From Eledone cirrhosa (lineage: Eukaryota), in the NCBI GenBank assembly GCA_964016885.1, contig OZ024742.1:154566001-154630000 (forward strand): a DNA stretch of 64,000 bases, given 5' to 3'. How positions within the stretch are numbered: the first letter of the stretch is position 1; each line of letters begins with the position of its first letter. Below the pieces are notes generated by a model. It saw nothing but the letters and a program-made list of their open reading frames with translations. It did not search any database and was not told where the DNA came from. A program made the translations under genes and the position numbers. Positions 1,089 to 64,000 of this stretch are shown here, piece by piece.

Positions 1089-1358
1089 TATATATATATA
1101 TATATATATATATATATATATATAACTTTTATTATCCTTAACACATAAGCGTCACTACCGTGATTGTGACAGATTTTGCAAATGCACGTTCACCAGCATG
1201 GTTTACATATAGGCATATAGGCAAGTCAACTATTTATATATATATATATATATATATATATATATATATATATATATATATATATACATTATGAAGAGAG
1301 AAGAAACATTTAGATATAATTAGTAATAAAATGTATCATACCAAAACTGCTCCTAAAT

Positions 1359-1448
1359 TCCTCGACTACGTAGTTTCGTGGCATAAACAAAAACAATATA
1401 TCATAAAGATATAGAGTCCTTGCGAGGTCTGCCGACTTATCAAGAGGA
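1359..1448 (-). ncRNA. Type I hammerhead ribozyme motif, U3-A8 core variant (inverted copy)
   Basis: Reverse complement of 1879-1968. Confidence 0.65.
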
Positions 1449-1878
1449 TACCTCATTTTACTAGTCTCAAGAACGCGTCTACACGACGTGAGAAAGAATC
1501 CCATTCATTGAGCAACATCGGTGAAGTTGGCACCCTTAACTCACAGTTGGGTGCGGATGCATTCATGTATATATGTGTGTGTCCGCATGTATCTGTGTGT
1601 TTCTAAATATATTGTTAATAACTCCCTCTGGTCGAGCAATCTTTGAAGTGTGGGGACAGCTGGAAAGCTTCCATTACTCATACTTCTCGCCTTCTTCACC
1701 ACCTCTTCTACGGCCTCGATATAAATACCCCCTGCGCCTCCGTGGTATTTTCTTCGGGGTTATAAGAGGCTTAGCTCTGTTTCTCGACCGTTATATCGCG
1801 TGACTATCTCCCCCTCCGCCTTTTGGGATTCTTTCTCACGTCGTCTAGACGCGTTCTTGAGACTAGTAAAATGAGGTA

Positions 1879-1968
1879 TCCTCTTGATAAGTCGGCAGAC
1901 CTCGCAAGGACTCTATATCTTTATGATATATTGTTTTTGTTTATGCCACGAAACTACGTAGTCGAGGA
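1879..1968 (+). ncRNA. Type I hammerhead ribozyme motif, U3-A8 core variant
   Basis: TCCTC-[TTGATAA]-long stem II (GTCGGCA...TGCCAC)-[GAAA]-CTACGTAG (palindromic stem III)-[TC]-GAGGA. Confidence 0.65.
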
Positions 1969-2255
1969 ATTTAGGAGCAGTTTAGGTATGATACATTTTA
2001 TTACTAATTATATCTAAATGTTTCTTCTCTCTTCATAATGTATTTTTAACTCTGATACTGGTTCAGTCTAGTTCAACTGAATTGGTCTGTCCCAGTCATT
2101 CATTGAGCAACATCGGTGAAGTTGGCACCCTTAACTCACAGTTGGGTGCGGATGCATTCATGTATATATGTGTGTGTCCGCATGTATCTGTGTGTTTCTA
2201 AATATATTATATATATATATATATATATATATATATATATATATATATATATATA

Positions 2256-2410
2256 TGTAACAACAAGTATGAGTCCAGAAATAGCCTTCGAAAGGGCCTG
2301 AGCTCTGCCGTCGGGATCATACTTTTTCCTATTTCCCACTATGCTACACTAAGTATCGAGTACTCTGGTGCTTATGGTCCATCTGGTTCCTTACCACAAT
2401 TCCTTTGTTT
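2256..2410 (+). mobile_element. Short (TA)n-flanked repeat family, copy 1 of 4
   Basis: Shares TAGCCNTCGAAANGGC..GAGCTCTGCCGTCGGG.TCATACTTTTTC and the downstream tail with 29666-29833, 30821-31155 and 55201-55347. Confidence 0.7.
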
Positions 2411-2444
2411 TATATATATATAAATAGATAGATAGATAGATACA

Positions 2445-59500: not shown

Positions 59501-61580
59501 CCTTCACACAGCGGACACTCAGCTCAGGTATTGCATGCATCGAGAAGGGATGGGCTCTGCTAAGTTTAAAGTACTCAAGACGTGCACCCCTACAACTCCA
59601 TCAGGAGTTCAGGTCCATACATACATGCAGTTTGTTGTTTATTTGAATATTTCTTTTATTGTTTATTCTACTACTTCGTACATGTTCCAAATACGGTACA
59701 ATAGCTATATGGAAGATTAATGAACAGAATACAGATATGTACAATGCATTGCCTCCCCGCTACTCCCATATTTCAACAGAATGTATCAAAAGATGTGGCT
59801 CCGCTGAGAAAATCCGCTCATTTGCTTACTGTAAAGGACGGCAGGTAATTTTCCTCCTCCCCCTTCATTTATATTTACATAGAGAACTTTATGAAGACAT
59901 CATTTCTACATCTATCTCATTGTTTCATCATCATCGTTTAATGTTCATTTTCCATGCTAGGTTATCTCTCTCTCTCTATATATATATATATATATATATA
60001 TCTTTCTCTCTCTCTGTCTCCCTATCTCTCTCTCTCTCTCTCTCTCTCTCTATATATATATATATATATATATATATATATATATATATATATATATATA
60101 TATATATATATAAGAAATTTATTCAGTCTAAAATACGGTGAAAGCTTATCATTTCTAATTTCTAATTATATATATATATATATATATATATATATATATA
60201 TATATGGCGTTGTTATTTGACGTTGTTGAAAAGAGCAGTAGCCTTTTACCCGGCAAAATTCTTTATGTACCAAAAACAAGACACACACAGACACACACAG
60301 ACACACACAGACACACACACACATGTTTGTGTGTGTGTGTGTGTCTCTCTGTGCGTGTGTGTGTATGTGTGTGTGTGTGTGTGTGTGTGTGTGTGTGTGT
60401 GTGTGTGTGTGTGTGTGTGTGTGTGTGTGTGTGTGTGTGTGTGTGTGTGTGTGTGTGTGTGTGTGTGTGTGTGCTCGTGTGTATGTATGTGTGTATCTCG
60501 CTCTCTCTCTCTCTCTATATATATATATATATAATGGATACAGATATTGTTTGCTCACTGTCACTAAGTTTTTGATCGAGGCATTTTATTTTGCAAGGTA
60601 CTATTTTCCCCTTGAGTTTGTGATTCCAGAGAAAGGTAAGAAATTCTTCATATTTCGCATCTTTTGTATTTTGACTTTACGGTTTGAATTGTAGAATTGT
60701 CTATCCACTCAAAATATTACAACAACTAACAGTGAAATATAGAATTTGAAAAAAGCTTTTTCGAATGAGATCAAATCTTTGAGAAAATTCACGTATTTTT
60801 TTCAAAAATATACGATTTTATAGAGATTTCTTTTGTTTTGGACTGAAACTTTTTTGTATTTAATTCGTACGTGTATTTTTTAAAGATTTTTTAAATATTC
60901 TAACATAACTTGATTAGGCCCAGTAATCTACTGATATCAAAATCAGTAGTATATTGAAAAATGGAAAAATAGGGTAGGAGCGTTTCGTGATTTGGAGGAG
61001 CACAATTGGTCGTGTGGCCGAAATGAGTTGAGGTCCTTTAGTCTACACAATTGATTGCTATAAACTTAGAAATTCGAAGAAAATACCCCTACATACGTAA
61101 AAATCAGCAGTATAATTTGCTTAGTATTGAAGTCTGTACGACAAAAGTTCCGGCTGTGCTTTATCAGGAATTTGACGCGTAGCGATTTCCATCCTCTATA
61201 CCGGATTCTGACAAATTTTTCGGCAATACAGGGAATTTACCTGATTTTCTAAGCTATTATTTTTAAAGAAACAACATTTGTTTACAGTTCTACTTCTGCT
61301 TTCGGGATTATCTCAATTTACTATATTCTTCAACTCAATCAAAGTTGAATTACACACACTGACACGTACACACTCATATATATATATATATATATATATA
61401 TATATATATATATATATATATATATATATATATATATATAAGGATTAGAATACTGGAGCGTGTTTGAGTCAAACACCCTCTTCGTATTATAGAAATGACA
61501 GTAATGGGTATAGCTCAATGCAGTTAAACAGAGCCAACAAATTAAGAGAGTAAAACAAAGAATCCTTTAATACATCAAAA

Positions 61581-61637
61581 GTTTTTATTAGCCGACAATG
61601 TTTCGTCCTATTAAGGACTCATCAGGGCAATCAAAAC
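61581..61637 (-). ncRNA. Minimal type I hammerhead ribozyme motif (inverted copy)
   Basis: Reverse complement of 63931-63987 with minor differences in distal stem I. Confidence 0.88.
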
Positions 61638-61902
61638 AACAAGAGGTAATATCGGCAGATACAAGCCAGAAACTCTGAAGAATATGGAGTGTACATACAC
61701 TCATGTCTTACAAAAATATATTATAATAAAAATGAAAATAAAGATAAAAATAATAAAAATATATAATAAGAATAACTAAGGATGTAGATAACATTAAGAA
61801 CCATATTACAAATATAGTCCAAAGCAACCAACCTAAATCTAAACAAATTTGGTTATATAGAGCAGGAATTATATATAACACAATATAATACATTATAATA
61901 AT

Positions 61903-62087
61903 TGTTTCTACTTTAGGCACAAGGCCAGCAATTACCCAGTGCATTACTGGCACTTTATTTTATCGACCCCGTAAGGATGAAAGGCAAAGTGAACCTCGGC
62001 GGGATTTGAACTCAGATCGTAAAGGGACGTAACTATGCTGGAAAGCATGGCGTCCGACCCTCTACCGATACTGCCAATCCACCGCCT
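61903..62087 (-). mobile_element. Full-length tRNA-derived SINE inserted in the left arm only
   Basis: Reverse complement of the 3515-3705 family and absent from the right arm. ATTATAATAAT on both sides (61892-61902 and 62094-62104) is a probable TSD. Confidence 0.9.
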
Positions 62088-63930
62088 TTATATATTATAA
62101 TAATAATATAATTTTACCAACATTAACATTCCAAATTAAAAATCAAAAGGTACAATATATACATGTATATATGTGCGCACACAAACACACACACAACAAC
62201 ACACACATCTATGTTCGACCACATAAAAATTAAGCCCTATTAGAGGTTTGAATATTAAAAATAAGCATGATAAGAGTGAAAATAATACTAATACATCTAC
62301 CCAATATACATGAGGCAATAATATGATATAATTACAAGAAACACATATAACAAATAATAAACAACAAAATTATATAATTCAATATAATATAATAAAATAG
62401 ATAATCCCCGGTTAATTTACAGAAACAATATGCCACTTCGCACCCTCCATATATTTCGTCAATTCTGTCCCCATTAGCCTACCTTAATTCTACTTAAGTC
62501 AGTTTTTTTAGATATCGTTGCGTATATGATAGTATAATTTTCATTCCTTTTTGTAAACATTTGTAACGATACATTAGAAGTTTATATACTTTAATGACTT
62601 AAACTACAGCTAATATTATACTACCTTATTGGACGGGTTCGATATTTTTAATATTAATTTATCAAATAGGGTTTGGAGTCAATTAAAATGATTGCTTTCC
62701 TTAGTGTTTACCTAATTTCTTAAATGCACGCGAGGCCTAAATGTGTATACATTTGCTTTTGTTTTGTAATTTCCGGTTGATTGTATTTATTTGTTTTATT
62801 CTATATTCTATTTACTATTCACTGTCTGGCTTCGCTCACTCATCCACATATGTCTGTCTACTAACCTTGTAATTATAAGTATTTATATATTTTATGCCAA
62901 TTTTATAATATATTATATTATATTGTATGTAATATTGATCCTTATTACTTACTGTTCATTATATATAACATTATGATATTTAAACTTTATATATCATGTA
63001 AGATGTCTGGATTTTTGTAATATTGTAATATGTAACATTATGATATTTAGACTTTACATATCATGTTAGATGTCAGTATATTTTTTTCTGTAACATCATA
63101 TTTTTTTCTGTAACATCATAATTTTTCCCTGTACCATTATAGTTTTTTTGAGTATTATATAATTTATATTTCCTCATTTATTCTGTAACCCAGTATGAAT
63201 CAATTTGTATATATTATTTATGGTACATGTTAATACAATGTTAACGTTTTATCATTGTATTTGATTGTGACATCTATATTGTTTCTGTAAATTAACCGGG
63301 GATTATCTATTTTATTATATTATATTGAATTATATAATTTTGTTGTTTATTATTTGTTATATGTGTTACTTGTAATTATATCATATTATTGCCTCATGTA
63401 TATTGGGTAGATGTATTAGTATTATTTTCACTCTTATCATGCTTATTTTTAATATTCAAACTTCTAATAGGGCTTAATTTTTATGTGGTCGAACATAGAT
63501 GTGTGTGTTGTGTGTGTGTGTGTGTGTGTGTGTGTGTGTGTGTGTGTGTGTGTGTGTGTGTGTGTGTGTGTGTGTGTGTGTGTGTGTGTGCGCGCACATA
63601 TATACATGTATATATTGTACCTTTTGATTTTTAATTTGGAATTTTAATGTTGGTAAAAGTATATTATTATTATAATGTATTATATTGTGTTATATATAAT
63701 TCCTGCTCTATATAACCAAATTTGTTTAGATTTAGGTTGGTTGCTTTGGACTATATTTGTAATATGGTTCTTAATGTTATCTACATCCTTAGTTATTCTT
63801 ATTATATATTTTTATTATTTTTATCTTTATTTTCATTTTTATTATCATATATTTTTGTAAGACATTAGTGTATGTACACTCCATATTCTTCAGAGTTTCT
63901 GGCTTGTATCTGCCGATATTACCTCTTGTT

Positions 63931-63987
63931 GTTTTTATTGCCCTGATGAGTCCTTAATAGGACGAAACATTGTCGGCTAATAAAAAC
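63931..63987 (+). ncRNA. Minimal type I hammerhead ribozyme motif
   Basis: GTTTTTATTGCC-[CTGATGA]-GTCC-TTAATA-GGAC-[GAAA]-CATTG-[TC]-GGCTAATAAAAAC. Confidence 0.9.
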
Positions 63988-64000
63988 TTTTGATGTATTA

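Follow-up and report, generated by a model that had tools for sequence, protein, structure and literature searches.

Endonuclease-bearing (EN+) Penelope-like elements (PLEs), among them those of the Hydra and Neptune clades, occur as partial tandems next to an inverted, 5'-truncated copy, carry a tail at one end, favor (TA)n targets, and contain hammerheads as well as clade-specific motifs (PMC8557442). How such insertions, inverted and with a single tail, come about is listed among the open questions by the same paper. PLE hammerheads are minimal, with a U3–A8 core variant, an extra base before stem II and a palindromic stem III, and come as pairs 100–700 bp apart on opposite strands (PMC4209133). 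In vitro, the lizard PLE Poseidon PAc from Anolis cuts and extends both target strands and starts at two internal sites that define the tail; the later integration steps were left unvalidated (PMC11167929). Here we examine a 64,000-nucleotide (nt) stretch of the 3.0-Gb genome of Eledone cirrhosa (contig OZ024742.1; "the window") in which ten inverted insertions, numbered E1 to E10 from left to right, are PLE products. Two-armed insertions of the families sampled combine, nearly without exception, one arm that ends at a 3' site A with one that ends at a second site B. We propose, with a probability of about 0.62, that such insertions arise when one RNA is primed twice, once from each cut target strand.

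Much of this architecture is familiar. Inverted arms, one-sided tails, (TA)n bias, hammerhead pairs on opposite strands and two start sites are all in print, and the elements themselves are ordinary members of known clades. A preliminary description of the window had left it undecided whether the architecture was new; for PLEs in general it had already been published (PMC8557442, PMC3846280, PMC4209133). By contrast, three features reported below had gone unnoticed there: that A and B pair strictly, that the 5' stop is fixed, and that an extra G precedes it. Our literature coverage, which left out most subscription papers (the 2005–2006 PLE reviews among them), figures and bioRxiv supplements, turned up no paper that states the A+B rule, a shared-template test or a cap mark for PLEs. 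The parts of PMC8557442 covered place the tail "often" at one end, ascribe it to endonuclease resolution, and give no A+B count, shared-template test or 5' stop; the tail is 30–40 bp there and 55–165 nt here. Likewise, the covered parts of PMC11167929 describe no pairing of strand and site, no model of inverted insertion and no run-off products. For an octopus, the covered part of PMC13282606 counts Penelope families and contains nothing on architecture.

Paired 3' ends of inverted insertions

Self-BLAST and direct reading recovered all ten insertions that had been listed for the window, within a few bases of the earlier coordinates, and an eleventh that had not been listed. We refer to the Hydra-type family of E6 as F6.

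1287–2207: E1, ORF-less (open reading frame, ORF) retrozyme-like insertion; A-ending inverted arm at 1287–1503 (minus), partial tandem at 1502–1613, 595-bp monomer at 1614–2207 ending at B
2257–2410 (plus): eleventh element, E6 family; short inverted stub, then an arm from the 5' stop site to B
2440–3490: E2; inverted A arm left, B arm right; related to E3
3757–5979: E3; inverted B arm left, A end right
4236–4941 (plus): broken Hydra-type GIY-YIG remnant within E3 (tblastn E 6e-24)
8713–10539: E4; inverted B arm left, A end right; this copy without ORF
24775–25185: E5, mini fold-back with its A arm on the left and its B arm on the right; pivot near 24935, where the E5 family has its 5' stop
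29667–29832: E6, mini of F6; B arm inverted, A arm direct
30821–31154: E7, F6 family; inverted short B arm, longer A arm
47197–52337: E8, Neptune-type PLE; its B arm (minus) spans 3.7 kb and its A arm (plus) 1.4 kb, with the pivot near 50920
47788–50934 (minus): 5'-truncated open frame of E8 with reverse transcriptase (RT) and GIY-YIG; Asn-rich insert, CX4CxxC linker, CCHH residues
55202–55346: E9, diverged F6-type mini; inverted A arm, direct B arm, no arm overlap (direct reading)
61441–64000: E10, ORF-less 2.6-kb fold-back; B arm left, A arm right; its right end lies at 64027, 27 nt outside the window

Each of the ten is bounded by (TA)n, with a short (TAGA)n between the TA run and the left arm of E2, and has a 3' end at either outer edge. 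Its two arms end at different sites, one at A and one at B, with B lying about 55–165 nt beyond A, which agrees with the offset of about 55–170 nt given before. Inverted arms were detected by self-BLAST in E1 (220 nt, 99%), E2 (247 nt, 87%), E3 (166 nt, 95%), E4 (171 nt, 99%) and E8 (1.5 kb, 96%), and also in E5, E6 and E10. E7 and E9 share the tail-out plan, but their arms overlap slightly or not at all, so these two form no real hairpin. Reads mapped on 100–6300 of the window contained TA loose ends at 1612 and 2043 and no empty allele.

Fold-back insertion had been suspected to be the rule for these PLE products, and this is what we found: 144 of 173 E6-family arms sit in inverted pairs. 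TA occurs within 24 nt of the 3' end in 162 of these 173 arms, compared to 11.5% of random positions. Nearly all F6 arms (170/173) end at one of two sites 80 nt apart, 84 at A and 86 at B. The 72 inverted F6 pairs comprise 68 A+B, one AA, one BB and two others; the remaining 29 arms are long copies with the far end out of view, arms with very short partners, or true single arms. The same pairing was observed in E5 (20/22 pairs, 19 by script and one reassigned by eye), in E4 (15/15) and in E1, where the seven loci with both ends in view among 14 were all A+B (four single-armed, three ambiguous). It extends to full-length F6 insertions of 6–12 kb: in 15 regions, all ten complete insertions were A+B, and five had an end out of view or were interrupted. 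In total, 120 of 126 two-armed insertions, from 0.15 kb to more than 10 kb in size, combine A with B, while independent choice would give half. For pairs under 1 kb, position lists that partly cover the same loci contain 29 mixed pairs, two AA pairs and no tail/tail pair. Genome-wide, A ends (5,475) and tail read-throughs (5,427) are about equally frequent.

In F6, E1 and E8, the element has TAT after A as well as after B. Relative to the ATG of F6, A is located about 175 nt and B about 95 nt upstream, whereas in E8 the two fall within the first codons of the open frame; the two start sites of PAc are similarly located downstream of the hammerhead near the ORF start (PMC11167929). Folds of three families contained no shared RNA structure around A and B. 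Target-site duplications are unreadable within (TA)n.

Opposite arms of one insertion also share sequence variants. In long insertions they differ by 1.28 positions per kb (22 comparisons), as opposed to 7.03 per kb between insertions (854 comparisons, some of them also 0). In 41 short insertions (minis), an arm has 2.6 mismatches per 45 nt to its own partner and 6.5 to other arms, and none of 10,000 permutations gave a value as low. Since either arm can be the longer one and contain sequence that is absent from its partner, each arm must have been copied from RNA on its own, and neither is a copy of the other.

The 5' stop site and its extra G

Many short arms also share a 5' end. In F6, the ends of 54 among 92 arms fall in a 6-nt window whose last position is the base after the A of TTT/TTC-AGTC; this stop lies 58 nt upstream of site A, and nine arms read far past it. 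Of 37 E5 arms extending to the A of TTC-ATATG, 18 go no further, and two E4 loci of one subfamily stop at TC-ACTG. No 5' stop was seen in E1, which is a tandem monomer. Compared with the initiator consensus, these stops resemble initiators in being pyrimidine–A steps. An initiator-like TCACT is also present in the pseudo-long terminal repeat (pLTR) of Adineta vaga Penelope (PMC3846280), and a promoter has been located within a PLE pLTR (PMC2377424). A TATA-like word about 30 nt upstream occurs only in F6, and we do not use it as evidence.

A purine before the F6 stop is usually a G. The first 100 of 6,679 matches have G in 89 and A in 11 cases, and at 60 F6 junctions this base is G in 55 and A in 8 of 63 arms. 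Where neither strand could have supplied the base, the ratio is 15 G to 2 A (p 9e-6 against 35% G). G is found on both arms at three loci and in all five arms that are joined directly to host DNA (by eye). An extra G at LINE-1 5' junctions has been ascribed to the cap (PMC11702581). By analogy, the extra G before the F6 stop is likely a cap mark, and the stop would be the transcription start.

Raw restriction-site-associated DNA sequencing (RAD-seq) reads from three other samples cover an F6 junction. They display TA loose ends at A and B; beyond the stop, depth drops approximately 28-fold, and the stop itself is a place of opposite-strand joints. Since the same ends and joints recur in raw reads of other samples, the fold-backs are no assembly artefact, a concern that had been raised before.

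Whichever priming model holds, minis are probably run-off products of the mRNA 5' end, and the tens of thousands of mini-elements in this genome likely originated in this way instead of forming a separate family. Several points speak against this interpretation. Transcription start and cap at the F6 and E5 stops are themselves inferred. By our script's test, 36 of the 55 G could derive from the partner arm, and the E5 count of extra bases is small (G 7, C 5, T 5, A 1). RT could also stall on structure at the F6 stop, which is part of the distal hairpin of hammerhead stem II, and the ends of F6 arms scatter over about 10 nt. TA-joined single arms are only 2.7 times more frequent at the stop than at a control position (487 vs 183), and RAD-seq depths are biased by restriction sites. 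The hairpin location and the spread would fit an alternative in which A+B pairing is kept while the ends of short arms mark no capped start but either a place where RT stalls in an RNA hairpin or a site of RNA cleavage. We consider this alternative unlikely, if the least so of those discussed here, because the enzyme has already passed two stronger stems when it reaches the F6 stop, the stops of E5 and E4 are found at TC-A steps that precede the ribozyme, the extra G marks a single nucleotide, and the E1 tandem monomer has no such stop.

Three observations concern the same region. The proposed F6 transcription start falls within hammerhead stem II of the pLTR (L001:1415–1530), so the mRNA would begin with half a ribozyme and could not cut in cis. 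Poly(A)/poly(T) runs are found at F6 junctions right at the 5' stop (L067, L086, L009 and a further locus that lies 172 kb past the end of the window), which suggests untemplated addition at the template end. A transcript that ran from the stop to the next ribozyme cut would have a terminal redundancy of about 40 nt, which led us to consider retrovirus-like strand transfer of a strong-stop cDNA; the idea found no support, as the read-through positions printed for long insertions lack an extra G.

Priming models

In the model we favor, both broken target strands would prime reverse transcription on one PLE RNA, and the UAU after sites A and B would let a TA-ended primer anneal. PLE enzymes are not known to have RNase H, so the B-primed copy would displace the A-primed copy. 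The two cDNAs would then join head to head, often through microhomology. If priming took place on the tail copy near the mRNA start, both copies would run off the capped 5' end after about 60 and 140 nt in F6, leaving a mini; priming at a downstream copy of a tandem transcript would produce kilobase arms. ORF-less hammerhead monomers such as E1 probably borrow the same enzymes. That both target strands prime, as proposed in the preliminary description, is likely also in view of the lizard PLE, for which cutting and extension of both strands, with initiation at two internal sites, were observed in vitro (PMC11167929).

In LINE-1 twin priming, two target ends prime one RNA, the arms show no overlap, and the position of the second site varies. 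Here, by contrast, both sites are fixed, the arms overlap and inversion is the rule, although an extra 5' G is common to both systems (PMC11702581). In a more specific, programmed form of our model, one protein–RNA complex would place the two target ends on a single RNA tail, each at its own fixed site, and, near the mRNA cap, leave paired strong-stop cDNAs; we regard the odds of this version as even. If it is true, tens of thousands of minis record the transcription start of each family to the nucleotide.

The role of the target is narrower than suggested earlier. (TA)n supplies primers on both strands and aids priming, but it is not the cause of inversion, because inverted PLE copies also occur at ordinary targets in Adineta vaga (PMC3846280). 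In that species Penelope shares the inverted pLTR with an optional tail, but it is of low copy number, has ordinary target-site duplications and is not (TA)n-bound (PMC3846280).

Against double priming of one RNA stand the exceptions among the 126 pairs (three AA, one BB, two other) and an additional longer BB pair seen by eye, beyond the 600-nt limit and outside this count. The pairing rests on samples of exact-motif matches from the first part of contig 1, which favor younger copies. What shared variants demonstrate is a common source locus, which need not mean a common molecule. In vitro, the two start sites served both strands equally, and initiation was called non-homologous to the cut DNA, unlike the TAT match described here (PMC11167929).

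A different possibility is that two RNAs from the same locus, one per subunit of an asymmetric PLE dimer, are copied from A and from B, respectively. A dimer is predicted for the lizard protein (PMC11167929), shared variants fit one source locus equally well, and the arm overlap of more than 3 kb in some insertions would require long strand displacement on one RNA. Two separate RNAs should give AA and BB pairs unless the dimer is asymmetric, and this built-in asymmetry contrasts with the symmetrical predicted contacts and with the use of both sites by both strands in vitro (PMC11167929). In addition, the 41 minis include no obvious hybrid arms between subfamilies despite the coexistence of many subfamilies. 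These considerations make the two-RNA dimer a doubtful alternative to double priming of one RNA.

It is improbable that a single cDNA folds back and copies itself, with the endonuclease trimming one arm at A, as in the "resolution" to which the tail was ascribed (PMC8557442). This scheme could draw on the 12 of 68 junctions that overlap at a short, self-complementary natural palindrome. As a general rule it is contradicted by non-nested arms: the A arm is often longer and contains sequence absent from the B arm, while the B arm contains the tail, and in eight of 68 cases the B arm reaches no further than A. The three loci with an extra G on either arm also speak against self-copying. A variant with folding through hammerhead stem II was rejected, since the junctions do not contain the whole loop.

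Finally, although many F6 minis are near-equal in length (about 15 of 29 pairs at 96–101 nt spacing), we can practically dismiss the idea that they are a family akin to miniature inverted-repeat transposable elements (MITEs) moving as whole palindromes, or that the inversions are assembly artefacts, because the arms derive from the 3' end of an ORF-bearing element of 3,528 bp and are unequal and diverged where MITEs have equal terminal inverted repeats, a uniform interior and mobility as a unit, because junctions vary from copy to copy with no dominant identical-junction cluster seen while the same stop recurs in several subfamilies, and because the joints are present in raw reads.

The near-strict A+B rule, the shared variants and the cap-like G narrow the options to a model that is testable in the existing in vitro system. 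For annotation, short palindromes of this kind (one F6 end motif alone has 37,639 exact matches) can be mislabelled as MITEs, short interspersed nuclear elements (SINEs) or microRNA hairpins. Short F6-type palindromes could also be a source of double-stranded RNA.

Element families, hammerheads and neighboring repeats

The ten insertions belong to Hydra-type families, one Neptune-type element, an ORF-less 595-bp retrozyme and one unplaced family. Judged by sequence, characteristics of EN+ PLEs are present: a single ORF with RT and C-terminal GIY-YIG in the F6 parent and in a neighbor of E8, along with partial tandems (pLTR), an inverted 5'-truncated copy and a one-sided tail. Long F6 copies extend upstream into a GIY-YIG and RT frame, and a protein search returned many near-identical F6 copies with a 784-codon open frame (717 amino acids from the ATG). 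The (TA)n-inserted F6 monomer measures 3,528 bp, whereas Hydra-clade elements are "generally under 3 kb" (PMC8557442). Motifs of the F6 parent read by eye (RWR, DKT, CNCX5C, CNLC, CKH) appear to fit the Hydra clade as defined there by RWK-like, DKT, CxCX5C, CxxC and CxH around E and N, without CCHH (PMC8557442). E3, E4 and E5 are tied to related Hydra-type frames by tblastn to the F6 protein (33–47% identity in long matches), and two long copies of the E4 family sit on Hydra-type ORFs. Of the ORF-less riders on PLE machinery that had been suggested, there is one likely case (E1); E5, E6, E7 and E9 are 3' ends of ORF-bearing Hydra-type elements and no separate non-autonomous family.

E8 would fall into the Neptune clade by its CX4CxxC linker (CX2-5CxxC), its C, C, H and H residues and its C-terminal EN, motifs that Nematis also has. 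A neighbor of E8, 58 kb beyond the window end, contains a 1217-codon open frame. Asn-rich ORF inserts are common to E8 and Adineta vaga Penelope (PMC3846280). Pfam gave no match for three PLE frames, that of E8 included. E10 contains no ORF, and no second copy was found in 930 kb sampled.

The E1 family consists of ORF-less tandem units of 591–595 bp with one hammerhead each; by this organization it resembles the non-LTR retrozymes, ORF-less tandem monomers with one type I hammerhead per unit (bioRxiv 10.64898/2026.07.22.740005). The two arms of E1 arrays and their compliance with the A+B rule connect the arrays with PLE-type insertion; neither is mentioned in the covered part of that preprint. 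The E1 unit also occurs as a 577-nt contig in another organism's sequencing run.

Genome-wide exact-motif matches, which count arms or units and not insertions, number 21,412 for the F6 core, 37,639 for the F6 B end, 19,747 for E5, 17,661 for E4 and 7,116 for E1 (24-mer). An F6 insertion on contig C1 near 437.2 Mb (L145–L146) contains at least 4.4 tandem monomers with 0–1 base difference per 3.5 kb, consistent with an array of very young age or with a single unit having been copied repeatedly.

A hammerhead descriptor gave nine matches in the window, as opposed to 0.3–0.4 in shuffles, and six of the nine lie within the arms of E1, E5 and E10.

1879–1968 (plus): E1 type I hammerhead; U3–A8 core, long stem II, palindromic stem III, predicted cut after 1963
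core at 1443 (minus): E1 mirror hammerhead
cores at 24872 (minus) and 24999 (plus): complete E5 hammerheads
61587–61631 (minus) and 63937–63981 (plus): E10 hammerheads
about 52083–52115: partial E8 hammerhead
28876–28907 (minus), 53537–53567 (minus) and 57867–57912 (plus): three descriptor matches outside the ten elements

The earlier statement that most arms carry a minimal hammerhead does not hold. The complete motif is present in eight of 20 arms, namely both arms of E1, E5 and E10 (descriptor) and of E4 (by eye), and several motifs have a long stem II and are not minimal, unlike those of PMC4209133, from which F6 also differs by its 5' stop inside stem II. E1, E5 and E10 contain what read as type I hammerheads (CUGANGA or U3–A8 core, GAAA, NUH, three stems). 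The left arm of E2 has the variant core CCGAUGA and its right copy is broken; the motif in the left arm of E3 is degenerate. E8 has the core and stem II only, without a closed stem I. E6, E7 and E9 contain only part of the motif, which is the 3' half in E6 and degenerate in E7. In F6, the complete hammerhead (U3–A8 core, long stem II) is restricted to long copies; it folds as a three-way junction (z −2.4), while E4 and E5 do not in the energy model. Core position 7 varies among 17 printed F6 copies, in which the neighboring positions were fixed by the search motif. Rfam found only the E10 pair, with 31.7 bits under a 34-bit cut-off, and its results were dominated by microsatellite matches.

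Several other repeats share the window, and its repeat complement looks cephalopod-like. At 55709–56900 (plus) we found a broken Hydra-type endonuclease frame with 35% identity to the F6 protein, beside a small fold-back at about 55400–55640. Another family, with direct repeat units of about 520 bp, occupies 27030–27414 and 27878–28779, with 3' ends that face each other across (TA)n; it is possibly a second retrozyme, with a CTGATGA core near 27330. A diverged 400-nt palindrome at 45108–45510, detected by self-BLAST, has no (TA)n bounds. A very abundant dispersed repeat of about 240 nt, which we take to be SINE-like, is found at 3494–3733, 7970–8153, 27734–27889, 34063–34136 and 61870–62108; the last copy is nested in the left arm of E10, and the repeat has the highest depth among mapped reads. 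The stretch 11518–12365 repeats 22107–22872. Broken elements of the long interspersed nuclear element type, with RVT_1 and Exo_endo_phos matches, are located at 12400–17700 (minus), 19000–22400 (plus) and 25320–26700 (minus).

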